Under the pieces are notes generated by a model. It was given only the letters and a program-made list of their open reading frames with translations, was not told the DNA's origin and did not search any database. This document shows, piece by piece, positions 8,576 to 29,692 of a DNA stretch of 64,000 bases. How positions within the stretch are numbered: the first letter of the stretch is position 1; the number at the start of each line of letters is the position of its first letter. The position numbers and the translations under genes were made by a program. The stretch covers positions 32,001 to 96,000 of the forward strand of contig CAVYES010000007.1 of the NCBI GenBank assembly GCA_963767735.1, read 5' to 3'. This DNA comes from Candidatus Bathyarchaeota archaeon (GTDB lineage: Archaea; Thermoproteota; Bathyarchaeia; Bathyarchaeales; Bathycorpusculaceae).

Positions 8576-9127
8576 TTAAGATAAACCTGTTGATGATGCT
8601 TGAACGTTTGTTTCTTGGTAGTATGCTGCTTGGGCTGTGAAGACTGTGAAAGCTATGGTTGTGCCGATGTCTGCTGTGGAAACACTACCTGGACTAACGA
8701 TGTAAACACTGATAGAGTTGCCGGAAGATAGCACTATGGGGCCTGTGGTTGCTTTGTATGGTGTGGTGCCTGATAGCAAGGCTGCTGCTCCTACAACTGT
8801 TAAGTCTGTTCCAGGTGTCGCTGATGCAGTATATGCTTTATCTGTTGGGAAGACTGGTTGTCCACGCACTTCAATCTGGCTAATTACAACGTCGCGTCCG
8901 CCAGTATTAGTTATCATAAGCGCACCCACGGCATTACCGCTTGCGTCACACCAAATATGAGCATAATTAACGGTGAGACTTTCCTGTTGAACCCTAGTGC
9001 TAACAACGTTAATAGCAAAGTAAGTAACGACGCCTGCGAGAAGCACTGCAACCACTAGAATAATCAGCGTAGTTATGACTGTACTGAGAGCCAAACGATT
9101 CTTCATCAATTTATGCATATTTATCAT
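8576..9127 (-). CDS. Archaeal type IV pilin (paralog 1)
   Basis: MKNRLA|LSTVITTLIILVVAVLLAGVV signal and hydrophobic helix; ITNTGGRDVVI motif. Confidence 0.85.
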   Translation of the reverse strand: MINMHKLMKNRLALSTVITTLIILVVAVLLAGVVTYFAINVVSTRVQQESLTVNYAHIWCDASGNAVGALMITNTGGRDVVISQIEVRGQPVFPTDKAYTASATPGTDLTVVGAAALLSGTTPYKATTGPIVLSSGNSISVYIVSPGSVSTADIGTTIAFTVFTAQAAYYQETNVQASSTGLS

Positions 9128-9302: not shown

Positions 9303-9902
9303 TTATGTACCGGTATATGCTTGAACGTTTGTTTCTTTGTAGTACATTGCTTGTGCTGTGAAGACTGTCAAGCCGACTGTTAGGCCGATGTCGTTGAGGC
9401 TGACGCTGCCTGGTGATAGGATGTAAACGACCATCGTGTCACCGGAAGGCAACACTAAGTCACCTGGAGATGCGGCTAGTGGGTTGGCAAAGGTTCCTAC
9501 GGTTTTAGTGGCAAGTGTTGGGCCAGTGAGGGTGTCCGTGTATGCTAAGCCTTGGTTTAGGTTGTCAGGTGTTTGACCTGTGGTAACGGCTTCGAGGAAG
9601 AATACGCTTGCGCATGGTTGTCCAAGTACTTGAATCTGGCTTATGACTACGTCGCGTCCGCCAGTGTTGGTTATCATCATCGCAGCTTCAATTGGCCCAG
9701 TTGCTGCGGATGAAGGTACCCAAATGTGGACGTTTGAAACCGAGAGACTTTCCTGTTGTACCCTTGTACTTACGACGTTTATGGCGAAGTAAGTTAAAAC
9801 ACCAGCAAGTAATATTGCCACTACGAGTATGATGAGGGTAGTTATTACAGTGGCTAACGCGTAACGGTTTTTTAATAGCCGGTTTATTGTTAATCGGGGC
9901 AT
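9303..9902 (-). CDS. Archaeal type IV pilin (paralog 2)
   Basis: LKNRYA|LATVITTLIILVVAILLAGV; shares long blocks with 8576..9127. Confidence 0.85.
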   Translation of the reverse strand: MPRLTINRLLKNRYALATVITTLIILVVAILLAGVLTYFAINVVSTRVQQESLSVSNVHIWVPSSAATGPIEAAMMITNTGGRDVVISQIQVLGQPCASVFFLEAVTTGQTPDNLNQGLAYTDTLTGPTLATKTVGTFANPLAASPGDLVLPSGDTMVVYILSPGSVSLNDIGLTVGLTVFTAQAMYYKETNVQAYTGT

Positions 9903-10222: not shown

Positions 10223-12319
10223 ATGCATATGAAAATCAACCCCCAAACAAAAATCCTATCACTGATCACAATTATCGTCTTAGTTTTCAGTCCAATAATT
10301 ATTACTCAAGCAGCCACCACTACCCAAACTCAAACATCAACTCTTCCAACCGCCCAATTACTCACAACGTCAGAATACACAAACTACGTGCATAACTTCG
10401 TTAACGCTGAAGGAAACTGCACTTACATGGAAAAACCAATGTTTCCAGTATTATTTAACAGTAGTCAAATACCGATCGGCGAAAACTGGACCATCATCTG
10501 CCCTCTGCAAGCCGGTCACAACTACCATATTTACTTTTATGGAGCATGGATAGACACTTCACCTCAAGCAACAACAGACTACAATATCTTCGTTTATGAT
10601 CCAAGTGGAAACTTGGAAAGCGCCCACATTGAATCAGCCGGTTTTCCACCACATTTAGGAACAACCGTAAATGACACGCTTTTTACGCCTACTCAATCAG
10701 GCAACTACACGTTTGTCATAAATAACAACCCATTTGGAAGTAAAGGTGCTCAGCAAGCAACTTTTATGATAATTGAAAATCTCGCTTGCGACACATGGTA
10801 CACCAGTTATGTCGAAGGCACAAGCAGCAGCACCCCAAGTTTCTACACAAACTGGGCCTATGAGTTCGAAACCAACGCGTCACACGTTCAATTATACATT
10901 AAGGTTCCGGATACGCTGGGCATGTATGAAGCTAGGCTTTACTTAATGAATAACGCGCAATCTCCAACTTTAAACAATTTTCCACTGGCTTGGGAACCAG
11001 GCTTATATGGCAACTTAACTGGTTCAGTCGGCGGCTACAACTTTGTACCTAACGACTATAGAGGCGTAGCCTACACAACCGACGAACACATGGGCCAATT
11101 CTTGACTCTAAATTACACCTCAACTAATACTGGAGACAATCTTTATCAGCTAGTACTCATCGGCAATGTAGGTTCAGGGAACATACAGTTAATGTTGAAA
11201 GATAATTTTGAAAAGGATGCCTTGACACCTTCAGCTATCACAATTTTTCCTGACACTCCAACAGAACTCACCTACACATCAAATGGCACCAATTTGGAGA
11301 CAGCTCAAATATCATACACCACCAACAACTGGATCAACACCAATACCATAAACATGAATATCAGCAACCAAACATGCAACGCCACAATCCCAGGCCAACC
11401 AGCGGGAACATTAGTTCAATACCAAATTAACGCAACAGACATTCTGGAGAATAACTTGTTTGCATTAGGCAACTTCACCGTGGAAAATGCTTCCTTGATA
11501 CCCTTGACTGTTCCAAGTAGAGTTTATCCTGACATTCCAACCGAGCTTACTTACACCTCAAACGGCACAAAGTTGGAGATAGCCCAAATATCATACACTA
11601 CGGATAATTGGACTAGTACTAACACCGTGAAAATGGATATCGGCAACCAAACATGCAACGCCACAATCCCAGGCCAACCAGCAGGGACACTAGTTCAATA
11701 CCAAATTAACGCAACAGACATTCTGGAAAATGGCCTGTATGCATCAGGCAACTTCACGATAAAGGAGCCGTTAACTCTTAACATTACTACAACTAAAAAC
11801 AAAATAGCTCAAGGCGAAAATATCACGATCCATGGAGTTCTATCTCCGAACTATAATGATTTTATAACTACCCCAAACTCCTATGATTCCAATACGATCA
11901 CAAACTCCAAGACGACTACAAGCTCCAAGGATTCCAAGGCTGCTTCAACCTCCAATGAAACTGCGACTAATGCAAACTATAATGATTCTGCAGATATTCC
12001 AAGCTATAATAATTACAACGATTCTATTGGTGAAGTACAATTCAGCAACGTTGGCTCCACCCAAACGGTAGATTGTGTTGTAAGCAGTAATGGCACTTTT
12101 GAAGCAACTTTCCGACCTAACGCCTCTGGAATATGGGCTGTTACCGCAATTTGCCCTGAAACCCAAACCGCCTACAGCTGCTATAGCCAACCGTTAACGG
12201 TAACTGTGACGCCAACGCCACTCTATATCAAATACTCTATGTTTATTATTGCTGCACTTGTCGCCGCTGTGGCAGCTGGTAGCGCCGTCTACTTTTTAAA
12301 GCTCCGAAGCAAATGGTAG
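10223..12319 (+). CDS. Secreted, C-terminally anchored cell-surface glycoprotein with an internal 93-aa repeat
   Basis: Signal peptide, many N-x-S/T sequons, S/T/N linker, C-terminal TM helix plus basic tail (KLRSKW). Confidence 0.8.
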   Translation: MHMKINPQTKILSLITIIVLVFSPIIITQAATTTQTQTSTLPTAQLLTTSEYTNYVHNFVNAEGNCTYMEKPMFPVLFNSSQIPIGENWTIICPLQAGHNYHIYFYGAWIDTSPQATTDYNIFVYDPSGNLESAHIESAGFPPHLGTTVNDTLFTPTQSGNYTFVINNNPFGSKGAQQATFMIIENLACDTWYTSYVEGTSSSTPSFYTNWAYEFETNASHVQLYIKVPDTLGMYEARLYLMNNAQSPTLNNFPLAWEPGLYGNLTGSVGGYNFVPNDYRGVAYTTDEHMGQFLTLNYTSTNTGDNLYQLVLIGNVGSGNIQLMLKDNFEKDALTPSAITIFPDTPTELTYTSNGTNLETAQISYTTNNWINTNTINMNISNQTCNATIPGQPAGTLVQYQINATDILENNLFALGNFTVENASLIPLTVPSRVYPDIPTELTYTSNGTKLEIAQISYTTDNWTSTNTVKMDIGNQTCNATIPGQPAGTLVQYQINATDILENGLYASGNFTIKEPLTLNITTTKNKIAQGENITIHGVLSPNYNDFITTPNSYDSNTITNSKTTTSSKDSKAASTSNETATNANYNDSADIPSYNNYNDSIGEVQFSNVGSTQTVDCVVSSNGTFEATFRPNASGIWAVTAICPETQTAYSCYSQPLTVTVTPTPLYIKYSMFIIAALVAAVAAGSAVYFLKLRSKW
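11249..11760 (+). repeat. Intragenic tandem duplication, period 279 bp
   Basis: PDTPTELTYTSNGT...NQTCNATIPGQPAGTLVQYQINATDILEN occurs twice (starts 11249 and 11528), with identical DNA blocks. Confidence 0.9.
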
Positions 12320-12446
12320 AGCTGCAAAACAACCATTCAGAAATAACTTAACGGATGCTAAAGAGTTCGAGGTAATTGGCTGAAGCCACAAAACTTATCT
12401 CATAATTAACGAGTAACATTTGATAGAGCGGCAGAAGTTGGATAAA

Positions 12447-12764
12447 ATGGATGATTTTGTTTCTGTTTTAGAAGAAAAAGATCTGCAAGAAGGCACAATG
12501 AAGCATGTGTCAGTTGAATGCTCACCGGTTTTACTGATTAAACAATCTGGCCAAATTTTCGCTATCGATAACCGCTGTCCACACATGGGCTGTGCTTTTT
12601 CAGGCGGTACTCTGGACGGCTTCTTAATAGTTTGTCCTTGCCATGATTGGCGCTTTGACTTAAGAACAGGTGAGTACCAGGATGAACCATCCATTAAATT
12701 AACAAAGTATAATTTGAAAATTAAGTCTGGAAAAATTTGGATCCAACTCGAAGAAGAAACATAA
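12447..12764 (+). CDS. Rieske [2Fe-2S] ferredoxin
   Basis: CPHMG and CPCHDWRFDLRTG motifs. Confidence 0.92.
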   Translation: MDDFVSVLEEKDLQEGTMKHVSVECSPVLLIKQSGQIFAIDNRCPHMGCAFSGGTLDGFLIVCPCHDWRFDLRTGEYQDEPSIKLTKYNLKIKSGKIWIQLEEET

Positions 12765-12810: not shown

Positions 12811-13743
12811 TTAATCCTTTGGACATGAAATAGCGGCGTTTTTGAACGTATATTCTTTGCAAAAATCCCAGAAGACCTCACACGTTTTAGGAAGAGTTCT
12901 TTTAGGTCTTACCATGTAGAGTTTTCTTTGCTTTTTTGCTTCTTCAATTTTAATTATGTTTGCTAAGCCTGCTGCTTGGGCTTTTTTCGCAGCGATTGAA
13001 GAAATCACGCTTATGCCTCTGCCTTCTGAAACGGCTGTAATTACTGATTCTGTGCTTCCCAACTCCAATGCGAGCATCAATTGCGACATTGAGATGTCGT
13101 TGTTTTCAAACATTTTCTCAATTTCCTTTCTTGTGCCAGATGTTTCTTCTCGATTAATGAAGGGATACTTTTTGATTTCATTTAGCTTGACAGATTTATG
13201 ATTGGCTAACTCGTGATTGCACGGCACAATTAACACCAGCTCTTCTTCGCCTATCTGGACAGCATCGAATTTTTCTTCGTAACCTAATATGGTTCCAACC
13301 GCCGCAAAATCTGCATCGTTGGCTTGTAAACTTTGAAGGCTTGTTATGCTGTCCTGCGCTTTTATTTTGAATTTGACGTCAGGATGCTTTTTTTGGAATT
13401 CAGAGATTAAGCTGGGAATTATATGTTCTTCCGGTATTGTACTTGCGGCAATCTTTATCGTTCCTGCCAAATTGTGTTTAGCTGAGGATATTTTTGTTTT
13501 AGCATTTTGGGCTTCTTGCAGAATTTTTTCCATGCTTTCCTTCAGCGTTGCTCCTGCTTCGGTAACTTCAACACCGCTGGCTGTGCGCTTGAATAGTTCA
13601 GCGTCAAAGTATTCTTCTAATGCCGCTATGTGGTGGCTTACTGTGCCTTGGCTTGTTCCTAATTCTTTGGCTGCTGTTGAGAAACTGCGCGTTCTGGCTA
13701 CTGTGAGAAACGTTTTGAGGTAATCGAACCTTATGGTTTCCAT
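12811..13743 (-). CDS. LysR-family regulator, resembling the selenium-metabolism-associated subfamily
   Basis: LysR HTH (SFSTAAKELGTSQGTVS), IAASTIPEEHIIP, REETSGTR, ELGSTESV; divergent from the selD operon. Confidence 0.88.
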   Translation of the reverse strand: METIRFDYLKTFLTVARTRSFSTAAKELGTSQGTVSHHIAALEEYFDAELFKRTASGVEVTEAGATLKESMEKILQEAQNAKTKISSAKHNLAGTIKIAASTIPEEHIIPSLISEFQKKHPDVKFKIKAQDSITSLQSLQANDADFAAVGTILGYEEKFDAVQIGEEELVLIVPCNHELANHKSVKLNEIKKYPFINREETSGTRKEIEKMFENNDISMSQLMLALELGSTESVITAVSEGRGISVISSIAAKKAQAAGLANIIKIEEAKKQRKLYMVRPKRTLPKTCEVFWDFCKEYTFKNAAISCPKD

Positions 13744-13814
13744 GTGCTTCTTAGCCTCTACGTTATTGTTTAGATTGTTGTATGCTATTTGTTTTTTGTT
13801 TTAGAAAAGGCTTA

Positions 13815-13831
13815 TATTAGTTTTTTTAATA
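13815..13831. promoter_or_regulatory. Putative LysR box (T-N11-A dyad)
   Basis: TATTA-N7-TAATA between lysR and dsrE; a similar TATCA-N7-TAATA lies at 14477-14493. Confidence 0.5.
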
Positions 13832-13864
13832 ACAATTATTCAGCAATATTGGAGGTGAAATAAT

Positions 13865-14216
13865 TTGGCAACATTCACATTAATAATATATGAAGCACCT
13901 TACGCAAAAGAACGTGCACTTTCAGCTTTAAGATTCGCATGGACTTGCGACGTGGAAGGACACAAAGTAAGAATCTGGTTGTTTGAAAACGGCGTGTACC
14001 TCGCCAAGAAAGGCCAAAAACCTGCTCAAGGCTTAACCAATTATGGCCAAATGCTTGAGGATTTAATGAAAGGCGGTACCGAAGTGAAAGCCTGCGTCGT
14101 CTGTGTAGACGCTCGAGGCTTAACCCAAACTGACTTGACTTGATGGAGTAAAAATTGCGACTGTTCATGAACTTGTTGAGTGGACAGTTAACAGTGACAA
14201 AGTAATAGCGTTCTAG
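13865..14216 (+). CDS. DsrE/TusD-family sulfur relay protein (1-nt insertion near 14139)
   Basis: APY..ER, WLFENGVYLAKKGQ, KACVVCVDARG; continues in another frame as DGVKIATVHELVEWTVNSDKVIAF*. Confidence 0.85.
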
Positions 14217-14225
14217 TGGAATTGT

Positions 14226-14450
14226 TTGGAAACTGAAAAGTTAGATGTCAAGGGAAAAATGTGTCCTATGCCTGTGGCTTTTACAAAGCGTAAGCTTGAA
14301 AGCATGGCTTCTGGGCAGTTGCTTGAGGTTGTTGGCGAAGGAGAATTGGAGTTTGATAATGTTCAGCGTTGGGTTAAGAATAACGGGCATGAGGTTGTTG
14401 AGGCGGCTAAGTCTGGTGCAGAGTTTAGGGTATTAATTAGAAAACACTAA
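14226..14450 (+). CDS. TusA/SirA/YedF-family sulfur (selenium) carrier
   Basis: LDVKGKMCPMPV (CPxP motif), 74 aa. Confidence 0.9.
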   Translation: METEKLDVKGKMCPMPVAFTKRKLESMASGQLLEVVGEGELEFDNVQRWVKNNGHEVVEAAKSGAEFRVLIRKH

Positions 14451-14476
14451 TCTCCATCAATTTTTCTAATAATATT

Positions 14477-14493
14477 TATCAGAAATTTTAATA
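14477..14493. promoter_or_regulatory. Second putative LysR box, upstream of the double-cubane gene
   Basis: TATCAGAAATTTTAATA, same half-sites and spacing as 13815-13831. Confidence 0.4.
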
Positions 14494-14533
14494 AGCCAAT
14501 GGGCAATACACTTCGCATTAGCACGTGATTATC

Positions 14534-15822
14534 ATGGCAGAAAAATACGTTGAAATGTGGAAAAATCTTGGAATGGATATTGAAAAACACAATCAACTCC
14601 TAAACGGTCTAGGCCAATATTACACCAGCGCAATTTTGTCCCAAAAGAACAGGCCCAAAAAAATGGATTACTTCGACTTTGTAGTCTCAGAGGTTCACGG
14701 TTTAAGAATCAAAGAACTCAATGACCTTAGAAGTGCACGGAAAAAAAGTGGTTGGCGCATTCTGCATTTACGCGCCCGAAGAAATAGCATACGCAGCAGA
14801 TGCAACAATGGTTGGATTATGCGGAGGCGCAGACTTCTCAGTTCCCGACGCTGAAGCGGTTTTACCCCGAAACCTTTGCCCGCTGATAAAGTCATTTTAC
14901 GGCTTCAAACTAAACCGCACCTGCCCATATTTCCAATCCAGCGACCTTGTAGTTGGAGAAACAACATGCGATGGCAAAAAGAAAGTCTACGAGCTACTCA
15001 ACGAGCTTGTCCCAACTTACGTGCTTGAAGTTCCCCACAAACCCGACACTGCAGCAAGGCAAAGCATTCTGGTTTAAAGAGTTAGAAGCATTCAAAACTG
15101 AGATGGAAAAGCTCACAGGCAACGAGATTACCGCTGAAAAACTAAAAGAAGCCATCGAACTAATAAACGACAAACGCAAAGCCCTCAAGCGTTTATCCGA
15201 TTTACGTGCAAATTCACCCTCACCAATCAGCGGCTTAGACGGATTACTTATCGACCAAATAGGCTTCATGGATGATGTGAAACGGTTCACAGCTAAAGTG
15301 AACGAGCTCTGTGACGAACTGGACCAGCGTGTAGCAAAAGGCGAAGGCGTCGCAAGCAAGGATGCACCAAGAATTATGATTTCGGGTTCTCCAATGGCAG
15401 TTCCTAACTGGAAAGTGCACAGCATCGCCGAGTCACTTGGCGCAACAGTGGTTGTTGAAGAAAGCTGCGTTGGAACAAGATACTTCACTGACTTGGTAGA
15501 ACCGAAAGGTGAAAGCTTGAATGATTTGCTTTGGGCTATAGACGAAAAATACTCCAAAATACCCTGCGCATGCTTCACACCAAACGACAGACGCATAGAA
15601 AGCATTACCCAACTTGCCAAGCAATTCAACGTAGAAGGCGTAATCTATTATACACTGCAAAACTGCCACGACTACAATGTTGAAGGAGTAAAAGTAGAGC
15701 GAGCATTGAAAGCCCAAGACTTGCCGATGCTGAAAATCGAAACCGACTACACAATGGGCGACTCAGAGCAGATCAAAACCAGAATTCAAGCCTTCATGGA
15801 AATCATTCAGGCGAAAAGGTAA
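14534..15822 (+). CDS. Double-cubane-cluster reductase-like protein (2-hydroxyacyl-CoA dehydratase/HgdD family); two 1-nt insertions near 14730 and 15050
   Basis: Joined frames give [87 protein letters not shown]. Confidence 0.85.
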
Positions 15823-15930
15823 CAAAACCTTTTCCACATTTTTTATCTTTAAATATTTTTAAATCATTAAAAGTAGATTATGATGTTTCTAGAAACTTCA
15901 GAATCGTAAGTATTAGGAGGAAAAACAGAG

Positions 15931-16951
15931 TTGGCTTACAGGTTAACTAAAGTTGTTCCAGTTCATGGTTGCAGTTGCAAGCTTCCACAGTACCAGCTAG
16001 GTGAATTGTTGGATAAAGCTGGTTTGACGGCTGATTTCGGCGAGGATGTGTTGGCTGGTCCATGGGAAAACTCCAGCGTTGTAAAAATCGCCGACGGCAT
16101 TGCTGTTTTGAATACGCTTGATTTCTTCACGCCTATGGTTGATGAACCTGAAATTCAAGGCAGAATTGCTGGAAGCAACGTGACAAGCGACATTTACGCT
16201 TTGGCCGTTACAAAGATAGTCAGCGTTTTGTCGATTATGGCGTTTCCCGAGAACATGCCTGACGAGTTAGCTGTGGGCATGCTGAAGGGGTTTGGCGATT
16301 TTTGCCGCGAAATGGGTGCGCCTGTGGTTGGCGGTCACACGATTCGGAATCCTTGGCCAATTATCGGCGGCGCAGCAACGGGCGTTGGTGACCCAGAAAA
16401 AATCGTTTACACCCGGGGAGCCAAGGTGGGTGACCGCTTGTTTTTGACTAAGCCGCTTGGGATTGCGCCTGCGATGGCTGCTTACAGGCTTAGGAAAGAA
16501 GATGAAGGACAAGAATTGCTCAAAGAGATCCCAGAAGAGCTGGTTGAAGCAGCTGTTAATGAAGCCATTGAGGGAATGATTAGTTCCAACAAGCCCGTTG
16601 CCGAAGCCATGCAGAAAGTTCCAGTTCACGCCGCAACCGACGTGACGGGTTTTGGTCTTAAAGGTCACGCTGAGAACATGGCGGTTCTGGGCAAAGTTGA
16701 CATTGTGATTAACCAGTTGGCGGTGATTCGTGGGACACCGGTTTTGGCTGAGCTTTTCGGTTACCCGTTGTTGACTGGGTGAAGCAAAAGAAACTGCAGG
16801 CGGAATGCTAATTGCGGTCGCGAAAGAGAACGCTGATGACTTGCTGGATGAGTTGGATAAGCGTAAAGTTAGGCATTTTGAAGTTGGCTACGTCGCTGAA
16901 GGTTGCGGGAATGTTAATGTTCTAAAAAACGCGAAAGTGATAGAAGCATAA
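15931..16951 (+). CDS. selD: Selenophosphate synthetase SelD, Cys-type (1-nt insertion near 16779)
   Basis: HGCSCKLP active-site loop, DFFTP, SDIYA, GGHTIRNPWPIIGG, TDVTGFGLKGH; continues as EAKETAGGMLIAV to TAA 16949-16951. Confidence 0.9.
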
Positions 16952-17028: not shown

Positions 17029-17358
17029 GTGTGTGCTTTAGGCTATGCGATTAAACTTTGGATGGTCAACGAAAAGAAAGAAGCAGTGTTCGGGGACGGC
17101 TTAGCTGAATTGATTGAGGAGATTGACAAGTATCACTCGATATTGGCGGCTGCAGAGCACATGGACATGTCTTACAGGTATGCACTGCACAGGATTACTT
17201 TGGCAGAGGAACGGCTGGGGCAATTGCTGGTTATACGAGTTCGCGGCGGAGCCAAGGGCGGCGGCTCTTCAGAAGTTACTGATTTCGGAAGGGATTTAGT
17301 TAAGCGATACCGGCGCGCTCAATCGGAGCTTAGCAAGATACTGGAAAAAATGCCCTGA
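17029..17358 (+). CDS. ModE-type winged-helix regulator (HTH only, no Mop domain)
   Basis: FGDGLAELIEEIDKYHSILAAAEHMDMSYRYA..RGGAKGGGSSEVT. Confidence 0.85.
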   Translation: MCALGYAIKLWMVNEKKEAVFGDGLAELIEEIDKYHSILAAAEHMDMSYRYALHRITLAEERLGQLLVIRVRGGAKGGGSSEVTDFGRDLVKRYRRAQSELSKILEKMP

Positions 17359-17463
17359 GCTTATCGAGATATTTTTAGGCGTCGCTCTGCTTAAGCGATG
17401 TTGCTGATTTTTCTTTATTTTTTATTGTTGTTATTTATCGTTTTCAAGAAATGTTTATAATGT

Positions 17464-17489
17464 TCGATATTACTGATTGATAACATCGA
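17464..17489. promoter_or_regulatory. ModE-like operator upstream of modA
   Basis: TCGATATTA-N8-TAACATCGA dyad immediately downstream of the TATA box TTTATAA (17454-17460). Confidence 0.65.
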
Positions 17490-17501
17490 GAAGGATGAAA
17501 A

Positions 17502-18353
17502 ATGAACACTAAATATCTCACTATAGCATTAGTAGTAATAATAGTAGTAGCTGGAGCATTAGGCTACATGGCATACAACGGGACATTCTCTGCCAAGAAA
17601 CCCACGCTCATAGTTTTCGCTGCATCAAGCATGATCAACGTCATCGCCAACATGACCCAAGCATTCGAAACAGCAAACAACTGCAAAATAGTAGTTAACT
17701 CTGCCTCATCCAGCACCTTATACACGCAAATCACTTCCGGCTCACCATGCGATATCTTCATGGCAGCTAACAACAAATGGGTCATAGATCTATACAATTC
17801 AAAATCGCTATATCAACAATATTATGATAATTTCACGAAGAATAGCCTTTGCATAATAGTTGCAGCAGGAAACCCGAAAAATATTACATCACTTGCAGAT
17901 TTAGTTAAACCTGGAGTAAGACTAATAGTAGCAGACGCATCAGTACCCGTAGGCGAATACACAAACGACACCGTTTATAACATCGCAACAACATGGGGCA
18001 ACCCGAGCAGCCCACTCTACGTGACCTCAGGCGTTTACCTAAATTACCCAGCGAAATTTGCGGCAAATGTTGTCTCCTATGAAGACACTGACGAAAACAT
18101 AGTTGGAGATGTCTCCCTTAACGTGGGAACAGCTGACGCAGGCATCGTATTTTACTCTGATTGGGCTTACGGCAACATGACACACGAACAAGTGCAGTTC
18201 CTTTCAGTACCTGCTTCTGTAAACACTGTTGGCACCTACGCCATTTGTATACCTAGCGAAGTGAAACAAACAGCTTTAGCACAAGCGTTCGAGAATTATT
18301 GGCTTTCTGCCCAAGGACAAGCTTTACTCACGGAATTTGGGTTCGGAACATAA
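17502..18353 (+). CDS. modA: Molybdate/tungstate ABC transporter binding protein
   Basis: FAASSM, NSASSSTLYTQI, DIFMAAN, VPVGEY, ADAGIVFYSD. Confidence 0.9.
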   Translation: MNTKYLTIALVVIIVVAGALGYMAYNGTFSAKKPTLIVFAASSMINVIANMTQAFETANNCKIVVNSASSSTLYTQITSGSPCDIFMAANNKWVIDLYNSKSLYQQYYDNFTKNSLCIIVAAGNPKNITSLADLVKPGVRLIVADASVPVGEYTNDTVYNIATTWGNPSSPLYVTSGVYLNYPAKFAANVVSYEDTDENIVGDVSLNVGTADAGIVFYSDWAYGNMTHEQVQFLSVPASVNTVGTYAICIPSEVKQTALAQAFENYWLSAQGQALLTEFGFGT

Positions 18354-18406
18354 AAGTGAATATAAGGCGCTTCTTCACGTTTTTTTAACTAACCGGTGTA
18401 AAAATA

Positions 18407-19225
18407 TTGAAGCACACCTTCAGTAATTCGTTATCTGACAAAATTGTACTGGTAATTTTTGGCCTTCTGGTGTTAACTTACTTTCTTTTCGTAACCTTGC
18501 CAATCATAGGAATTTTTTTGAAGATCGAGCCAGGTCAAGTCAACGCTCAACTGCATAACTCCGCGATCATAGACGCCATACAGCTTAGCTTATTTACATC
18601 GGGCATAGCTACTTTAATTGCCCTCGTTTTAACGGTGCCAACTGCTTATTTTATGGCGACAAGAAATTTCCCCGGGAAATCAATCTTAGATACATTGATG
18701 GATTTGCCTATCGTGTTGCCGCCTGCTGTGGCTGGTGTAGTGCTGCTGTATGCTTTCGCGCCGAAGGGACTATTAGGTCCAATATTCAATAGATTGGGAT
18801 TAATTATCCCGGGCAGCACAATAGCAGTTATCATTGCTGAAAGTTTTGTAGCGTCACCCTTCCTCTTAAGATCTGCCAAAATTGGATTCGAAAATATGGA
18901 TAAGGACGTTATTAATAGCGCCAAAATGTTAAGTGGCTCTCGCCTCAGAGTATTTTTCACGATTACTCTTCCTCTGTCGATACGTGCAATAGTTTCTGGA
19001 ACTATGATGACTTGGGCAAGAGCCATGGGAGAGTTCGGCGCAACTTTAATGTTTGCGGGAAACTTGCCGGGTATAACGCAGACGATGCCGCTGGCAATCT
19101 ACGTGTTACTGTATTCTAATCCTTTCGGGGGCATCATGTTAGCAATCATCTTAATCATTATTTCCTTCTCGATTCTTATCGTTGTTAAGCTTCTTGAACA
19201 AAAAAGGTTTGGAGTCAAAAAATGA
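18407..19225 (+). CDS. modB: Molybdate ABC transporter permease
   Basis: DLPIVLPPAVAG, WARAMGEFGATLMFAGN. Confidence 0.92.
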   Translation: MKHTFSNSLSDKIVLVIFGLLVLTYFLFVTLPIIGIFLKIEPGQVNAQLHNSAIIDAIQLSLFTSGIATLIALVLTVPTAYFMATRNFPGKSILDTLMDLPIVLPPAVAGVVLLYAFAPKGLLGPIFNRLGLIIPGSTIAVIIAESFVASPFLLRSAKIGFENMDKDVINSAKMLSGSRLRVFFTITLPLSIRAIVSGTMMTWARAMGEFGATLMFAGNLPGITQTMPLAIYVLLYSNPFGGIMLAIILIIISFSILIVVKLLEQKRFGVKK

Positions 19226-20331
19226 TTAGAGTTGATTCAATAAAAAAATCATTTGCGGAAAAAACAGTTATAGAAAACCTAAGTCTTGAAGTAAAAAAAG
19301 AAGAAATCGTATCATTGCTTGGGCCAAACGGCTGCGGAAAAACTACTCTGCTAAACATAATTTCAGGATTAACGAGACAAGATGAGGGCAACATTTACCT
19401 TAACGAGGTTTTAGTCAGCGGGAAAGCGGGCACAAAAAAAGTTCACATTCAGCCTTCGGAGCGCAAAGTTGGCTACGTCTTTCAAACCACATCTCTTTTT
19501 CCGCATATGCGAATTGAAGACAATGTTGCATACGGCTTAAAGTCACTTCATTTTCCTGCACAAGAAGTTAAAAAAAGAACCAATGCTTTGCTTGAGTTTG
19601 TAGGTCTTCGTGAATACGCAAAGTTTTATCCGCATCAACTCAGCGGTGGGCAAAAGCAGCGCATTGCATTGGCAAGGTCTTTAGCTACTGAACCGCAAGT
19701 TCTGTTTTTAGATGAGCCCGTTTCCGCCGTAGATCCTCAATTAAGAGAATCTTTCAGGCTGGAACTCAAAAACTACTTGCAAACACTTAAAATTACCGTG
19801 ATTTACGTGACTCATAACTTGTCTGAAGCGTTTATAATGTCAGACAAGATAGCAGTGATGGGCAATGGACACATAGAACAAATAGGCAACAGAACAGAAA
19901 TCTTTGATAAGCCAAGCTCATCATACGTCGCCCAGTTTCTCGGGATAAACACGTTCAAAGGCAAGGCAGTTAAAACCAATGCGGGACTCTTAGAAATCGA
20001 TGTAAACGGAACAGTACTTTTGGCAGCCCCTATGGTGCCTAATCTGGTTGGAAAAAATGTTATTGCCACAATTAAACCTGAAGACATAATGCTTTCAAAA
20101 TCAGCCGATTTCAATTTTAATCGAGTTTTAGGCAATTCTGTTGAAGGCGTCATAACTGAGATGGTTCAAATGAGATCGAACGCTCAAGTCACAATAGACG
20201 CAGGGTTTCTGTTAAAAACAAGATTATCTTTAAGCGCTATTAAAAATTTAAACCTAAACATAGGGGATAAAGTGAACGTGCGCTTCAACGCTGACGCCTT
20301 AAATGTTTTTGCCGACAACTGCACTGAATAA
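19222..20331 (+). CDS. modC: Molybdate ABC transporter ATPase with TOBE domain
   Basis: GPNGCGKTT, LSGGQKQR, LDEP, C-terminal TOBE-like region. Confidence 0.9.
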   Translation: MIRVDSIKKSFAEKTVIENLSLEVKKEEIVSLLGPNGCGKTTLLNIISGLTRQDEGNIYLNEVLVSGKAGTKKVHIQPSERKVGYVFQTTSLFPHMRIEDNVAYGLKSLHFPAQEVKKRTNALLEFVGLREYAKFYPHQLSGGQKQRIALARSLATEPQVLFLDEPVSAVDPQLRESFRLELKNYLQTLKITVIYVTHNLSEAFIMSDKIAVMGNGHIEQIGNRTEIFDKPSSSYVAQFLGINTFKGKAVKTNAGLLEIDVNGTVLLAAPMVPNLVGKNVIATIKPEDIMLSKSADFNFNRVLGNSVEGVITEMVQMRSNAQVTIDAGFLLKTRLSLSAIKNLNLNIGDKVNVRFNADALNVFADNCTE

Positions 20332-20394
20332 TATTTGGATTATTTGAAATTTTCAGAAAATAAAGAAATTCACTTATCCAGGATTTATTGGCAA

Positions 20395-20515
20395 TTAGGC
20401 AGATTTGCGGCGTTTTTTAGACGTTTCCATCGCAATGGCAGCGGTCTCGCTGTTCTGGGTCGTCAGGTTCCTCGAAGAAACCGAAAAGTTTATGTCTAAT
20501 TTTCTTTTTGGACAT
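20395..20515 (-). CDS. Possible small protein with a CHC motif
   Basis: MSKKKIRHKLFGFFEEPDDPEQRDRCHCDG(T)SKKRRKSA* if one extra base is removed; TATA-like TTTATATC about 37 nt upstream. Confidence 0.35.
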
Positions 20516-20599
20516 TCTGGTTCTCTCGAATTAAAGCGTAGGGCAATGAGTGATATAAACATATTTTTAATTCTTTGTAAATGCGGAATTAATTTTAGA

Positions 20600-21121
20600 T
20601 CAAGTTCGGTTGAAGGTCTTGCTTTTTTTCTCAACTAAATTGGCGAGCTCCCCAGCTTGCGTTAAGCTCTTAAACATCGGAAGCTTGAAGCTCACAGCTT
20701 TCCTCTCTTCCTCTTCGGAATACATTATTAATCCAGAAATTGCGACAACTGAAACATCCAAGTATTGCTTTGCTTCTTCGGCCGTTTTTGCGGCGATGAT
20801 TTTAGGCATGTTTTTTTCTGATTCGAAACCTTCTAAAATAACGTAATCGAAGTCTTCAAAGAAGGGCATAAGCTCCATTATGCGGAGTCTTTTTTTTATG
20901 AAAATTACAGTTTCGTTTCTTGGGGCCGCAGCTATTATTTCTGCTCCTGCACGGGTGTACCTGTCAGTTTCAGTGGCAGGCGTGTCCAAGGTTGGGATGC
21001 GAACCATCTCTTTGATTGCCCCAACATGGTATCCGCGGCGTTTAAGCTCGGCGATTAAATGCTCAATCACCGTCGTTTTTCCCGAGTGTTTTCCACCGAC
21101 AACCGCGACCAGTTTTGGCAT
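20600..21121 (-). CDS. mobB: Molybdopterin-guanine dinucleotide biosynthesis protein B (paralog 1)
   Basis: VAVVGGKHSGKTTVIE, VGAIK, DYVILEGF. Confidence 0.85.
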   Translation of the reverse strand: MPKLVAVVGGKHSGKTTVIEHLIAELKRRGYHVGAIKEMVRIPTLDTPATETDRYTRAGAEIIAAAPRNETVIFIKKRLRIMELMPFFEDFDYVILEGFESEKNMPKIIAAKTAEEAKQYLDVSVVAISGLIMYSEEEERKAVSFKLPMFKSLTQAGELANLVEKKSKTFNRT

Positions 21122-21254
21122 TGCTTCACCGTCCAAGCTTGTACCGTGAATGAGCCATATATTGTTTAATGCATAAAAGAAAAAGCGAGAGGCGCAATTT
21201 ATAAAGCCAAGCAAAAGTGATTTTCTGTCAGGAGCGTGAAACCTTACGGTTTTA

Positions 21255-21818
21255 GTGGTTGCCGCGGTCGGCGTTAGCGGTTCAGGAAAAACAGTAACTT
21301 TAGAGTATTTGATTTCTCACCTCTCAGCCGAAGGCTACAAAATCGGCTCAATAAAACATGTCCACCACAAAGGCTTCACCATGGATAGGGAAGGCACCAA
21401 CACCTGGAGATACGCCCAGGCAGGCTCCAAAGTAATTGTGGCGATTTCTCCTGAAGAAATAGACATTATTAAGAAAACCCAGATGGCGCTCAACGATTTA
21501 GACCAAATAATCGCTCTGCTTGAGCAGGAGAAGCTTGATGTTGTTTTCATTGAAGGCTTCCACAGTTTAATCGCTAAAAGACAAGACGTGCCCAAAATAA
21601 TTACTGCTAAAGACCAAAATGGACTAGAGCGGACTTTGGAAGGCACAGTTCAGCCGATCTTGGCGATTGCAGGCATAGTGGCCCAAAACGCGAGCAGCCC
21701 CACCTACACCAATATACCAGTGATTAAGGTTCCTGAAGAAGGGCAAAAACTCGTAGAACTAATCAAAAAACAATTAGAAAAGCCACAGAGCGCACTCACC
21801 AAAAAAATGGGTAACTGA
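21255..21818 (+). CDS. mobB: Molybdopterin-guanine dinucleotide biosynthesis protein B (paralog 2)
   Basis: GVSGSGKT, IKHVHH, DREGTNTWR, DVVFIEGF. Confidence 0.88.
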   Translation: MVAAVGVSGSGKTVTLEYLISHLSAEGYKIGSIKHVHHKGFTMDREGTNTWRYAQAGSKVIVAISPEEIDIIKKTQMALNDLDQIIALLEQEKLDVVFIEGFHSLIAKRQDVPKIITAKDQNGLERTLEGTVQPILAIAGIVAQNASSPTYTNIPVIKVPEEGQKLVELIKKQLEKPQSALTKKMGN

Positions 21819-21827
21819 GGAAACGAC

Positions 21828-22916
21828 ATGACTAAACGGGCTGCACTTATTCTGTCAGGGGGAAAAGCCCGCAGGTTTCAGTCAAAAAACAGAAAATGGG
21901 AAGACAAAGCCCTAGCCGAGCTTGAAGGAAAACCTCTTTTAATTCATGCCATCGAAAGCGTTGAAGACGTTGTTGATGAAATTGCAATATCCGTAAACGA
22001 TGAGGAAAGGAAAGCAAAATATAACCAAATCCTAGAAAAATTTGCTCGTGCAAACATACCGATAGTTGTCGATGAAAAAAATAAGCATGTTGGTGGACCT
22101 AACGTGGCAATCATGTCGGGGTTAAAATCTGTTAAAGCTGATTATTGTCTTACTTTGCCCTGTGACATGCCCTTTCTGCAGCCGTCTGTTGCTGATTACA
22201 TGTTCAGTGAAGCGGAAGGTTTTGAGGTGGTTGTTCCAATGTGGCCTAACGGCAGGCTTGAAACCCTCTTAATGGTTCTTGAACGACGCGGCGGTTTAGA
22301 AATCGCAGACACATTGTGCAAGATGAATCGGCCACGCTCAGACGACATACCTAGGGGCGCCTCCAAAATACTTTTTGCTTCTCCAGTGAATCATATTAAA
22401 ACGCTCGACCCTGAACTTAAAAGCTTCATCAACGTCAACTTTAAAGAAGACTTAAATCAGCCGCAGATCCGCCCTACAAACGGCGCAGTCACAGAAAACT
22501 TACAGGTAAACTTGGGTGTTTTATCAATTTCTGATTTGCAGCACCTTCGAGAAGGCGAAGACATGTTGCTAGCAGGCAAGCTTTCAGAGGCGCAGAACAT
22601 GTTCGCTTCATGCATCAGCAACTTTGAGGTTTCTAACAGCTTTTTTTGGGCAGCTGTTAGCGGAGAAAACCAAGGTGAAGCATTTCTGAGGCTATTTCAA
22701 CGACAGCTTGAAAAGCAAGCGGCTACTGAACTGGATTTTGAGGGCAAAGAAACTTTCCTAAAGGCTGCAAACAACTATCGAGTTGAAGCTGAAATACATG
22801 AAGAAAACCGCTGCTGGCTACTTGCTGAACGGGCATGGGCTGATAAAGCATGGTGTGAATCACGGGCTATGGGAAAACATACCCACGTTCATAGGTACCC
22901 GTCAAAAGCGCCGTGA
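21828..22916 (+). CDS. mobA: Molybdenum cofactor guanylyltransferase with a helical C-terminal extension
   Basis: LILSGGKARRF..DKAL, GP...GL, PCDMPF, SFINVN; about 140 extra aa. Confidence 0.85.
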   Translation: MTKRAALILSGGKARRFQSKNRKWEDKALAELEGKPLLIHAIESVEDVVDEIAISVNDEERKAKYNQILEKFARANIPIVVDEKNKHVGGPNVAIMSGLKSVKADYCLTLPCDMPFLQPSVADYMFSEAEGFEVVVPMWPNGRLETLLMVLERRGGLEIADTLCKMNRPRSDDIPRGASKILFASPVNHIKTLDPELKSFINVNFKEDLNQPQIRPTNGAVTENLQVNLGVLSISDLQHLREGEDMLLAGKLSEAQNMFASCISNFEVSNSFFWAAVSGENQGEAFLRLFQRQLEKQAATELDFEGKETFLKAANNYRVEAEIHEENRCWLLAERAWADKAWCESRAMGKHTHVHRYPSKAP

Positions 22917-22922
22917 ACCAGC

Positions 22923-24200
22923 TTAGGCGATCTGAGCCAATTCCAGTTTTCCGAACAAGCGAACATTTACGTTGGCGCCTTTAGCTAAATTTGTGTGCGG
23001 CGGAATTATTGAGTATCCGTTTGATTTGACAATGGTTGTTAACGCGCTTGAACCGCCCTCAACTTGCTCCGCTAAGAGTTTGTTTTCGGCTCGTTTTAGG
23101 TGAAGGAGCAGAAAACGGTATTGCGGACCAGAATCCACAAATTCAGTTAACTCAGCCGGTAAACATGGAAGCAAACCGTCTCCGCTCAGACCGCAATAGA
23201 GGCGGATTAAGGGAGCTGCAAAAAGGTAAAATCCAGCAATGCAGGACCCGATGTGACCAGGCAACATTACAACTGGCTTCCCTTCAACAATGCCGAAGCC
23301 CGATACAGCGCCCGGTCTCAACGATACGCCTTGCACAACAACGCCTGGTGGGCCAAGATTGTTTACGGCGTCTGGGACAAAATCTTTCATGCCTACCGAT
23401 GTGCCGCCAATCGTTACGACTATATCGGCGTCTGAGAAGGCTTCGCCGATTTTAGCTTGCACTTGATCTAAAGCGTCAGGCATTATTCCTTTCAGCTTCG
23501 CCGTGGCGCCCAATTCAGATGCTATCCCTTCAATGACTAGGGCGTAGTTATTTGCGATTTTTGCTGGGTCTTTTTTACATTGCCTGATTAACTCGTCTCC
23601 ACCCGAGAGAATGGCTATACTGGGTTTTTTGAATACTTCAGCCGCCGACACTCCAATCGAGGCGAGCAAACCAACGTCTTGCGGTCGCAGAACTTGCCCT
23701 TGCTTAAAGATTAACGTGCCTTGTTTAACGTCGTCGCCGAGCGGTATAATGCCCTCTCCTGGCTTTATTTCGCGGATTATTTCGATTTTGTCGCCATTTA
23801 GGCGGGTTTCTTCCGCTTTAACGGTTGATGCTGCTCCTTTGGGTATTGGTGCTCCGCATGCGACGTAAATTGCTTCGCCACTTGCCACTTTGGCGTCAGT
23901 TGGGTAGTCGGCTGGAAACAGCTTCCCCACAACTTTGAAAACGGCGGGCTTTGATGTTGATGCGCCTACGGTGTCTTTTGGGTTGATTGCGTATCCGTCG
24001 ATGAAAGTTTTATCGTAAGCTGGAATGTTAATGTTTGAAACGGCGTTTTGAGCTAAGACTCTGCCTAAAGCTGCCTGTAACTGGACAAATTCAGTGGGCA
24101 ACTTGACTTCGCGCATAGCGTCAAGGAGTTGTTTTTGCGCGTCTAACGGGTTGCCGCGTTTAGGCAGCCTTTTTATGTCTGGTCGATTCATAGCGGTCAC
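22923..24200 (-). CDS. moeA: Molybdopterin molybdotransferase
   Basis: ALGRVLA, IDGYA, GAPIPKGA, SGGDEL, GGTSVG, LPGH. Confidence 0.92.
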   Translation of the reverse strand: MTAMNRPDIKRLPKRGNPLDAQKQLLDAMREVKLPTEFVQLQAALGRVLAQNAVSNINIPAYDKTFIDGYAINPKDTVGASTSKPAVFKVVGKLFPADYPTDAKVASGEAIYVACGAPIPKGAASTVKAEETRLNGDKIEIIREIKPGEGIIPLGDDVKQGTLIFKQGQVLRPQDVGLLASIGVSAAEVFKKPSIAILSGGDELIRQCKKDPAKIANNYALVIEGIASELGATAKLKGIMPDALDQVQAKIGEAFSDADIVVTIGGTSVGMKDFVPDAVNNLGPPGVVVQGVSLRPGAVSGFGIVEGKPVVMLPGHIGSCIAGFYLFAAPLIRLYCGLSGDGLLPCLPAELTEFVDSGPQYRFLLLHLKRAENKLLAEQVEGGSSALTTIVKSNGYSIIPPHTNLAKGANVNVRLFGKLELAQIA

Positions 24201-24986
24201 CTACAGGATTATTCTTTCGGCTCCAGTGTAAACGTTCATGCGGCATCCACGCACAAACCCTACTAGAGCAATGTTTGCTTTCTCCGCGGAAGAAATGCCT
24301 GAGTTCAAAACCGCGGCCACCGACGCAACGATGGGCAAACCGACTTTCGCCGCCTTGTAAATCATGTCTCCTGGCACACGCCCAGTTATAATCATGAAGC
24401 ACTGGCCGAAATTCTCTTTTTTTAATGACGCCTCGCCGATGACTTTGTCAACAGTGTTGTGCCTTCCCACATCCTCGGAAAATGATACGATTGAGCCATC
24501 TGCTTTGACGATTGCGGAGTCATGCAGACCCCCAGTCTCCTTGAACCCCCGAGCAAGACCGTTGATTTGGATCATTGCATCCAGAATAACTTGGGCTTTA
24601 ATTTTCAGCTGCGATTTTACGACGGGGATTCTCTCGTCATGCTGATAAGCTGAAGTGCTAGCTTTGATTAGTGGGATAATGCGGGTGCTTCGCCGCGAGT
24701 TTTTCATTCGCTCATCCAAATCCACGCTTGCCTTAAGCTTGATGTGGCATGTATACGCTTTTTCTTCGGAGCATAAGGATTCGATTTCGTCAACTGACCT
24801 CAAAATGTCCTCGGCAAGCAAGTAGCCGACTGCAAGCTCCTTAAACTGGGAGGGAGAACACCAAATTACAAACGTGTAAACATCATTCAACGAGATTTGC
24901 AGAGGGACTTCTTCTGCAACACAGTCCTTTGTTTTCTCCGCTTTTCCGGTTGATAAGTCAAGCCTTACCATGTCAACTTGACGCAT
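24201..24986 (-). CDS. fdhD: FdhD sulfurtransferase (Mo/W-bisPGD sulfuration)
   Basis: EEVPL, ELAVGYLLAE, FKETGGLH, EDVGRHNTVDKVIG. Confidence 0.92.
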   Translation of the reverse strand: MRQVDMVRLDLSTGKAEKTKDCVAEEVPLQISLNDVYTFVIWCSPSQFKELAVGYLLAEDILRSVDEIESLCSEEKAYTCHIKLKASVDLDERMKNSRRSTRIIPLIKASTSAYQHDERIPVVKSQLKIKAQVILDAMIQINGLARGFKETGGLHDSAIVKADGSIVSFSEDVGRHNTVDKVIGEASLKKENFGQCFMIITGRVPGDMIYKAAKVGLPIVASVAAVLNSGISSAEKANIALVGFVRGCRMNVYTGAERIIL

Positions 24987-25152
24987 AACTTTGTCCTTCT
25001 TCTGTTGTTGTGTTTTGAACTCGGCGGTGTTGATAAGGCATTCGGCTACCCAAATGTTAGATCAACAAGGTTGGCAAATAGAAGAAAATTCAACGGTTAA
25101 AGCAAGAAGAGACAAATAGGCTAAAGGCGGACCTCAAAAGCGTTAAAAAGTG

Positions 25153-25362
25153 CTAAGGCCCGAAAATAACTAAATAGTCTTTGCTCTCTTCTACGGAGAA
25201 CTTGTTCCTTAGAAATATTTCAACATCTTGAAGATTGTAAACGCCTTTAATTTTCAACTCGTAGCTATCAGGCTTTCTTCGGTCTATAAGAACGAAAGAC
25301 GGCTGAATTAAATGTTCAGCTCCTAATTCTTTCAGTAAAGCCACCGTTTCTTCTCTCTTCAT
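25153..25362 (-). CDS. Small hypothetical protein
   Basis: 69-aa ORF starting MKREETVALL with a TATA box (TTTATAA) about 37 nt upstream. Confidence 0.5.
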   Translation of the reverse strand: MKREETVALLKELGAEHLIQPSFVLIDRRKPDSYELKIKGVYNLQDVEIFLRNKFSVEESKDYLVIFGP

Positions 25363-25618
25363 ATACACTTCACTCAACCCACTTGAAGGCACTAGACTTA
25401 TAAACAATATTCCCAAAACAACAAACACCCCAAAAGATAACCCAAAACAGAATCCTGCAAACCTACGCCGAGGTATTTCAAAAAAACGATCAAGCCTCGC
25501 CTCCTTACTATTTACAACCAATTCGGCTAAGCAAATAGCAAAACATTAAGCGAAAAACTTGATGGTTTAATAGAAATAGAATCGAGCTTAGCCCGAAAGC
25601 ATTGCCCAAAAAGGAAAT

Positions 25619-29685: not shown

Positions 29686-29692
29686 TACGATT

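Follow-up and report, generated by a model that had tools for sequence, protein, structure and literature searches.

A divergent LysR gene and a carrier, double-cubane and selD gene run form a candidate selenocysteine-independent selenium operon in Bathyarchaeia

Within a stretch of 64,000 nucleotides from the genome of a Candidatus Bathyarchaeota archaeon (the window; contig CAVYES010000007.1, positions 32,001 to 96,000), genes for a DsrE-like carrier, a TusA/YedF-like carrier and a double-cubane cluster protein (DCCP) are followed on the same strand by selD, with a selenium-type LysR regulator gene divergent to them. We propose that these genes constitute a real operon, dedicated to selenium and independent of selenocysteine (Sec), in one genus of Bathyarchaeia, and that its products act as a relay and a feeder for SelD; we give this proposal as a whole an even chance of being right. 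The genome under study (hereafter G000) is 3.04 Mb in size and 94.9% complete. Window coordinates are used unless a contig is named. The locus contains the following features.

12420..12764, plus strand: Rieske [2Fe-2S] ferredoxin-like gene, convergent with the LysR gene and possibly associated (PF00355, 71.8 bits)
12811..13743, minus strand: selenium-type LysR (LysR_Se / HrsM-like), intact, 310 aa (NF040786, 265.8 bits)
13811..13830, plus strand: promoter region 5′ of dsrE; a TATA-like box (13811–13817) overlaps an ATTA-N7-TAAT dyad (13816–13830)
13865..14216, plus strand: DsrE-like carrier with a CxxC motif (PF02635, 60.9 bits); frame broken, the open reading frame (ORF) as given ends at 14143
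14226..14450, plus strand: TusA/YedF-like carrier, 74 aa, intact, with a CPxP cysteine (PF01206, 70.5 bits)
14534..15822, plus strand: DCCP of 'type A', HgdD family, in three frames (NF040772, pieces of 181.1 and 317.7 bits)
15931..16951, plus strand: SelD (selenide, water dikinase), Cys form; frame broken, the ORF as given ends at 16782
17029..17358, plus strand: ModE-like helix-turn-helix regulator (TIGR00637, 54.3 bits, under the cut-off of 98.5), which opens the adjoining molybdate/tungstate and cofactor cluster; a neighbour and at most a putative member of the operon

The five-gene content had been proposed in the initial annotation, made from the sequence alone; its coordinates were correct and its identities were confirmed by curated hidden Markov models. 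The motifs it cited were likewise found: CVVC in the DsrE-like protein, MCPMP in the TusA-like protein and the cysteine motifs of the double-cubane protein, to which HGCSCK in SelD can be added. The LysR protein passed the cut-off (250) of NF040786, 'selenium metabolism-associated LysR', and covered profile positions 4–297 of 298. For SelD, the first piece from G000 (283 aa) scored 291.7 bits against NF010705 (cut-off 291) and 234 bits against TIGR00476 (cut-off 125), and an intact orthologue from a related locus (L002) scored 331 and 228 bits, respectively. The match to the SelD-related sulfur family NF038049 was only 39.5 bits (cut-off 250). The nearest solved structure was that of human SPS1 (162 bits). 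In SelD, the Cys or Sec of the N-terminal glycine-rich loop and the Lys that follows it are the catalytic residues, and the loop H12 G13 C14 S15 C16 K17 was invariant in 31 sequences. Synthesis of selenophosphate is assigned to the protein through this family membership.

The double-cubane protein of G000 matched NF040772 in pieces only, while its intact orthologue from L002 scored 498.6 bits (cut-off 350). A 493-bit match over residues 9–427 was obtained between the double-cubane orthologue and the solved DCCP (PDB 6ENO/7YYL), which presumably comes from Carboxydothermus hydrogenoformans. Cysteine spacing was 18, 18, 29, 165, 32, 32 in seven of seven orthologues. The pattern printed by Haft 2022 (10.1101/2022.07.06.499078) reads CX19CX18-19CX29CX166-170CX32-34CX32C; two of our spacings are one residue short of it, which the counting convention may explain.

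The two carrier-like proteins were harder to place. The intact DsrE-like orthologue has 116–121 aa and scores 80.9 bits against PF02635, and C13, P14 and P16 of the TusA-like protein were invariant across 32 sequences. The best NCBIfam match of the TusA-like protein was to YedF NF008242 (50.6 bits), with 36.7 bits against the fused YedF profile TIGR03527; those of the DsrE-like protein were to TusD, TusB and TusC, all under cut-off. The pair consists of two separate genes and resembles YedF in function at most.

Related loci were gathered through the double-cubane protein with two very specific peptide patterns, a search that returned close relatives only. The titles of the named relatives were almost all Candidatus Bathyarchaeota or Bathyarchaeia. 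The 53 loci obtained were scored for gene order as follows.

SelD at most 200 nt after the double-cubane gene: 46 of 53 loci
A gene of 257–259 aa between the double-cubane gene and SelD: 3 of 53
Flank without SelD: 2 of 53
Contig ends before SelD could appear: 2 of 53
DsrE-TusA upstream of the double-cubane gene: 48 of 53
LysR divergent and next to DsrE: 43 of 53
Rieske homologue convergent with LysR: 35 of 53
ModE-like gene directly after SelD: 12 of 53

A gene order that recurs in 46 of the 53 loci is far beyond chance, and the neighbourhood is conserved in Bathyarchaeia, in archaea from soil and peat. The Rieske gene was also present in loci that have no double-cubane gene (L007, L011, L012). 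In an alignment of 29 intergenic regions the promoter columns were conserved at 80% or more; judged from this pattern, the dyad, a LysR box of the T-N11-A type, may be the LysR operator and the TATA-like box the TATA box of the operon. A DNA search of SelD-negative relatives, including G001, G003, G010 and G021, found no trace of the operon, and the carrier-DCCP-SelD module is gained or lost as a unit.

Distribution was determined in a set of 120 species genomes of the genus, 73 of them of high quality. SelD scored over cut-off in 81 of the 120 and, by our own count from the table, in 54 of the 73 high-quality genomes. The double-cubane type of the SelD locus (457–512 bits) was present in 46 genomes, 45 of which also have SelD, and 43 of the 47 over-cut-off double-cubane genes lie directly beside SelD by their coordinates. 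The reverse dependence was not seen: 36 of the 81 SelD genomes have no over-cut-off double-cubane copy, although two of these (G000 and G131) have a split one.

SepSecS, a marker of Sec synthesis, was found in 10 of the 120 genomes, all SelD-positive (6 of the 73 of high quality), so that 71 of the 81 SelD genomes lack it; 39 of the 46 genomes with the double-cubane type also lack it. Neither SelU (TIGR03167) nor YqeC (TIGR03172) had a match in any of the 120 genomes, G000 included. In G000, to which the YqeB search was confined, YqeB (TIGR03309), SepSecS (TIGR03531) and PSTK (TIGR03574) had no match; aSelB and SelA were not searched for. No YedE transporter was found in G000. The best match there to the tRNA-Sec model RF01852 (40 bits, gathering threshold 47) fell on tRNA-Cys. 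A tRNA-SeC called by aragorn with introns allowed at C2:181623-181728 was rejected: it is an ordinary intron-bearing tRNA with a 7-bp acceptor stem that scores 41.8 bits against RF00005. The statement of the initial annotation that no Sec, SelU, YqeB or YqeC gene lies in the window can therefore be extended to the whole of G000 for the markers named, and its postulate of a Sec-independent SelD pathway agrees with the distribution in the genus. The G000 module is a Sec-independent ('orphan') SelD module, in the sense that the Sec, selenouridine and YqeB/YqeC markers are covered; SenA and SenB were not searched for.

Judged by the markers searched (SepSecS, SelU and YqeC), each of the three known traits is absent from 71 SelD-positive genomes. 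In dozens of species, then, the operon cannot be explained by Sec, selenouridine or the YqeB/YqeC route, and the large orphan-SelD clade so defined (71 of 120 species genomes) is a place to seek a new use of selenophosphate. Molybdenum hydroxylase was considered as the client of SelD and dismissed, since the family occurs in only 12 of the 120 genomes (all SelD-positive), too rare for 81 SelD genomes. The corresponding operon of G000, of the CoxMSL/xanthine-dehydrogenase type, lies at C2:106386-111352; it also holds putative XdhC-like and MocA-like genes, judged by their first residues only.

Outside the genus the module was met together with Sec. In a class sample of 301 genomes from 107 genera, the SelD-linked double-cubane type was found in 10 genomes from 4 genera. 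Four of these genomes belong to other genera, and in three of the four the double-cubane gene is 0.5–0.9 kb away from a SelD gene bearing an in-frame TGA, with SepSecS present. The TGA stands at C14 and was found at L070:8132-9151, L071:8149-9168 and L086:8131-9150 as well as in G333, G345 and G230, that is, in the sister genus and in one other family of Bathyarchaeia, with SepSecS in the same genomes. SepSecS lies within 5–6 kb of the locus in G333 and G230; in the latter, SelD, the double-cubane gene and SepSecS are all inside 6 kb. Since the TGA of L070, L071 and L086 replaces the active-loop Cys, SelD there is a selenoprotein. Likely, a Sec-using ancestor lost the Sec machinery in most of the genus, its SelD changed from the Sec to the Cys form, and the carrier-DCCP-SelD module was retained. 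The module is under constraint, so SelD has a job other than Sec. The view of the initial annotation that archaeal Sec use is known mainly from Methanococcales, Methanopyrus and Asgard is too narrow in scope: Sec machinery occurs in the 10 genomes of the genus, and Sec in Bathyarchaeota has been reviewed in print (PMC9499178).

The co-directional run was correct in order and strand in the initial annotation, which overlooked that, as the sequence stands, the reading frame is interrupted in three of its four genes: once each in DsrE and SelD and twice in the double-cubane gene. The DsrE frame ends at 14143 and resumes in the +1 frame to 14216; SelD, which in G000 has no uninterrupted frame, stops at an in-frame TGA (16780–16782) and resumes in the +1 frame to 16951. 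Each of the four breaks amounts to one extra base relative to every relative aligned.

Break 1 (DsrE), 14137–14139: an extra base missing in 9 of 9 relatives aligned across the site
Break 2 (double-cubane), 14741–14747: a run of seven A, six in relatives
Break 3 (double-cubane), 15050–15054: one extra base compared with relatives
Break 4 (SelD), 16774–16779: GGG where relatives read GG

Contigs of relatives from public soil and peat metagenomes were also one base short at or near 14139, 14732/14737, 15054 and 16774; a 252-letter X4 contig covers 253 positions of the window (14009–14261) and has one gap. We consider it most likely that the four breaks arose as errors in the assembly consensus and are not biological, because the broken genes are under purifying selection and the relatives all lack the extra bases. 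When the four bases were skipped, no internal stop was left and all 10 conserved cysteines of the double-cubane protein were retained. Codon changes specific to G000 were mostly synonymous (non-synonymous to synonymous 6:34 in SelD, 3:11 in DsrE, 7:17 in TusA and 4:19 in the double-cubane gene), the same pattern as in the intact SelD of relatives (5:27 in G004, 11:38 in G018).

How common such breaks are in G000 was estimated from a close relative, G018: 286 ORFs of at least 150 aa from 20 stretches were searched against G000, and the 201 whose best match reached at least 60% identity were kept (85 were dropped). Twenty of the 201 orthologous ORFs, or about 10%, were split over frames in G000. 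With stricter colinearity, 19 frame events were counted in 195,315 aligned nt, 15 of them extra and 4 missing bases, and they cluster, with 5 of them in a single sampled stretch of 20 kb that holds 13 orthologues. Split genes were also seen in 14 of the 53 public loci of the group, and other genomes in few contigs, such as that of L003, show splits of this kind. Of the 19 events, the 15 extra bases all fall outside homopolymers and the 4 missing ones inside them. By eye, 4–5 of 18 insertion sites lie near CTNAG-like words, a possible sign that base calling errs systematically at a methylated motif. Two further split genes were noticed in the window, both on the minus strand. One (28131–29703), a single ORF of 494 aa in G018, is read here as two overlapping ORFs through an extra base near 28629; it sits between a FwdD-like gene (29693–30094, PF01568) and fwdA, and neither piece matches Pfam. 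The other (37397–38123) is an ERCC4-domain nuclease gene in two ORFs, with an extra base near 37786.

The obvious alternative is that the extra bases are real and that the operon genes of G000 are very recent pseudogenes, in a cluster decaying after it lost its purpose. The initial annotation had named a decaying cluster as grounds for giving up its hypothesis; the breaks touch that clause, and the evidence favours assembly error over decay. Several observations do weigh against an error of assembly. Four breaks in a 2.9-kb operon compare with 0.28 expected there from the genome-wide rate (Poisson P = 2e-4 if breaks are uniform), a density exceeding that of every sampled region of G000, and none of the public sequencing runs screened for the window holds G000 (best share of words 0.11), which left no reads against which to check the extra bases. 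A decay of this kind would also accord with the intact state of the adjacent LysR, TusA, Rieske, ModE-like and ModABC genes, and with a locus in flux, since the closest relatives, G004 and G018, have no double-cubane gene. Against it stand the lack of internal stops and the full set of conserved cysteines once the bases are skipped, ratios of codon changes that match those of relatives with intact genes, and the finding that a tenth of G000 genes are split alike, usually through a single additional base and with the splits grouped by region, as are genes in other few-contig genomes. We regard recent inactivation as unlikely, though as a serious contender. Far harder to credit is that the breaks are programmed, through ribosomal +1 frameshifting or transcript slippage used genome-wide. 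The same +1 shift would be needed at all four operon breaks and at 15 of the 19 genome-wide events, and two of the operon breaks stand just before an in-frame TGA; yet no common motif was visible by eye at 14 mapped insertion sites, and the relatives make the same proteins without the extra base. An apparent tRNA with a four-base anticodon (C5:186288-186389), reported by aragorn run without introns, became an intron-bearing tRNA-Met once introns were allowed.

The mechanism that we propose would run as follows. The divergent selenium-type LysR would control the promoter with the conserved dyad. The DsrE-like (CxxC) and TusA-like (CPxP) proteins would jointly replace the bacterial YedF fusion, bind reduced selenium at a cysteine, in perselenide form, and deliver it to SelD at its N-terminal Cys loop. 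In genomes that have it, the double-cubane protein may be an accessory on the supply side, which is the least certain step: energised by an ATPase of the DCCP-R type, it could free selenide from oxidised or bound selenium by reduction at very low potential. In the sister genus the operon itself encodes such an ATPase; in G000 it would come from genes elsewhere in the genome. SelD would then make selenophosphate, to be used in G000 by a consumer other than Sec, selenouridine or the YqeB/YqeC cofactor route.

Structure prediction lends weak support to a contact between TusA and SelD. The predicted complex reached an ipSAE score of 0.56, compared with 0.00 for the best control; the runs shared at least 91% of contacts, with a partner pLDDT (predicted local distance difference test) of at least 88, from our own shallow alignments. 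Of 80 solved complexes, 58 attained that mark, as did 2 of 110 mismatched pairs, but both mismatches, and only 7 of the 80 solved complexes, attained it at 0.60 or under.

The double-cubane protein cannot be the sole client of SelD, because 36 of the 81 SelD genomes have no over-cut-off copy of it; the suggestion of the initial annotation that it is the client fails in this exclusive form. What is left is an accessory role, as a feeder or as one of several clients, and the data do not separate these. A feeder role is preferred because its gene stands upstream of selD, between it and the carrier genes, and because this class of enzymes carries out ATP-driven reductions at very low potential (PMC9351452). 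The occurrence of the double-cubane type almost only together with SelD (45 of 46), when SelD occurs also alone, fits an optional feeder.

The gene of 257–259 aa between the double-cubane gene and SelD (L070, L071 and L086 only) encodes an activase of the DCCP-R type (TIGR00241, 290.8 bits). Elsewhere in G000 there are two TIGR00241 activase genes (C2:31516-33209), beside a second double-cubane-like paralogue. This paralogue (C2:29183-33209; L089:5183-9206) scores 340.7 bits against NF040772, just under cut-off, and its operon also holds a NapH/MauN-type membrane ferredoxin, the two activase-type ATPases being TIGR00241 members (BzdQ-like, 356 bits). The second paralogue (320–348 bits) is found in nearly all genomes of the genus, including SelD-negative ones.

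Our proposal of relay and feeder has to be set against several findings that tell against it. The carriers fall short of YedF: the TusA-like protein scores under the cut-offs of both YedF models (79 for NF008242, 110 for TIGR03527), and the DsrE-like protein has no match to TIGR03527 at E 0.001 or better. There is no DCCP-R gene in the G000 operon nor in 46 related loci, and DCCP cannot be reduced without DCCP-R (PMC9351452). Because the genomes belong to a single genus and are related by descent, the counts given above are not independent. Finally, the asymmetry by which DCCP needs SelD and SelD does not need DCCP suits a client role equally well.

That client role can be put more strongly, namely that a further SelD-dependent trait outlived the loss of Sec and that the double-cubane protein is a selenium enzyme, a consumer in which selenium from SelD is built into or at the fused cluster, for example as [4Fe4S]-Se-[4Fe4S], with DsrE and TusA delivering it. 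We think this rather unlikely. It has in its favour that Haft 2022, who found 955 of 970 strong NF040772 proteins in SelD-containing assemblies, lists a selenium-bridged analogue of the 8Fe-9S cluster as a formal possibility; that in 46 of 53 loci the gene stands with the carriers on one side and SelD on the other, and that it is kept in the 39 double-cubane genomes without SepSecS; and that the SelD-adjacent type is distinct from the second paralogue, which SelD-negative genomes also carry. However, another client must exist for the 36 SelD genomes with no over-cut-off copy, the solved DCCP, so similar to the protein here, is described with a sulfide bridge (PMC9351452), and Haft rates ordinary pathway links as more likely. 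If the reading were true, double-cubane proteins would gain a first physiological role, and the fact that they almost always occur together with SelD would be accounted for. We consider it quite improbable that the module has no selenium product at all, being either a relic of the Sec trait or a system that works on sulfur, through persulfide or thiophosphate, or serves only to produce the LysR effector. DsrE and TusA do belong to families of sulfur relays, the DsrE-like protein with TusD, TusB and TusC as its nearest models, and the Sec machinery of 10 genomes in the genus and of the sister genus indicates that the orphan state arose by loss. On the other hand, SelD passes two SelD equivalog cut-offs and falls far under that of the sulfur family NF038049, its loop Cys is Sec in relatives, the LysR passes a selenium-specific model, and about 54 of 73 high-quality genomes keep a strongly constrained SelD. 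The feeder role, with selenium as the substrate, remains our preferred reading.

Downstream of SelD (17029–28130) the window continues with genes for the ModE-like regulator, ModABC, MobB (twice), MobA, MoeA, the sulfurtransferase FdhD and the formylmethanofuran dehydrogenase subunits FwdC and FwdA. The synteny of selenium and molybdenum/tungsten genes recurs in the genus; as evidence for a functional tie it is weak, because it is seen within one genus. On the other side of the locus lie two paralogous genes for archaeal type IV pilin-like proteins (8576–9127 and 9303–9902, minus strand; Pilin_N 23.1 bits, just under cut-off) and, after this pair, a gene for a Thr/Asn-rich surface protein of 698 aa with an internal repeat of about 100 aa (10223–12319, plus strand).

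The initial annotation presented the system as a candidate undescribed one, which is too strong for its central association. Haft 2022, who built NF040772, already tied the double-cubane protein to SelD, and in a 2023 preprint (PMC10418091) DCCP is termed 'provisionally linked to selenium metabolism', with DCCP/DCCP-R drawn in bacterial clusters together with selD and selR (Fig. 5). Lin et al. 2015 (PMC5322559) defined LysR_Se and YedF, reporting YedF as absent in archaea and one archaeal orphan SelD as known. Our literature search found, within the library covered, no description of the operon in Bathyarchaeia, though the supplementary tables of Haft 2022 and Lin et al. 2015 may list archaeal cases. 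The archaeal variant is new; the association of double-cubane protein and SelD and the idea of a selenium bridge are already known. Two open questions meet in the locus: the role of double-cubane proteins, that of the solved enzyme being stated as unknown (PMC9351452), and the mechanism behind their tie to SelD (Haft 2022). The archaeal operon is the tightest physical link between a double-cubane gene and selD seen in this analysis, the former being wedged between carrier-like genes and selD under a selenium-type regulator.

Comparison with known systems places the operon among several relatives. TusA and DsrE proteins form sulfur relays, such as TusA/TusBCD of E. coli and DsrE3A-TusA of Sulfolobales. 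The two carriers share with these the same two folds, adjacent genes and conserved active cysteines. They differ in that both score under every TusA/TusD equivalog cut-off, that the CxxC of the DsrE-like protein is like that of the DsrE domain of YedF, and that their partner is SelD rather than tRNA thiolation or Hdr-like sulfur oxidation. With the orphan SelD and YqeB/YqeC trait (Haft and Self 2008, PMC2276186) the module has in common a SelD without Sec or selenouridine, an adjoining Mo/W cluster and, in G000, one Mo-hydroxylase operon, but YqeB and YqeC were not found in G000, YqeC is absent from all 120 genomes, and Mo hydroxylase is present in only 12 of them. HrsM of Methanococcus (Lin et al. 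2015) is likewise an archaeal member of the LysR_Se subfamily, as judged by model, and adjoins selenium genes; it acts on hydrogenase operons of the Cys isoform in Sec-using methanogens, whereas the LysR described here is divergent to a carrier-DCCP-SelD operon, and its genome has no Sec.

The resemblance to DCCP/DCCP-R (6ENO, 7YYL; PMC9351452) extends to the 493-bit match, a seven-cysteine pattern nearly as published and an adjacent activase gene in 3 of 53 loci; unlike there, no DCCP-R gene is part of the G000 operon, and the gene context points to selenium. Closest are the bacterial neighbourhoods of selD, LysR_Se, YedF and DCCP, for which the adjacency of DCCP and selD is taken from the papers cited, since our own search for related loci was limited to close relatives. 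The same families are involved, and in both the double-cubane protein occurs almost always with SelD and not the reverse. The genomes that Haft terms SAO all have Sec, whereas most hosts here have neither Sec nor selenouridine nor YqeB/YqeC. In the present case the host is archaeal, separate DsrE-like and then TusA-like genes replace YedF, and the double-cubane gene is inserted directly between the carrier genes and selD.

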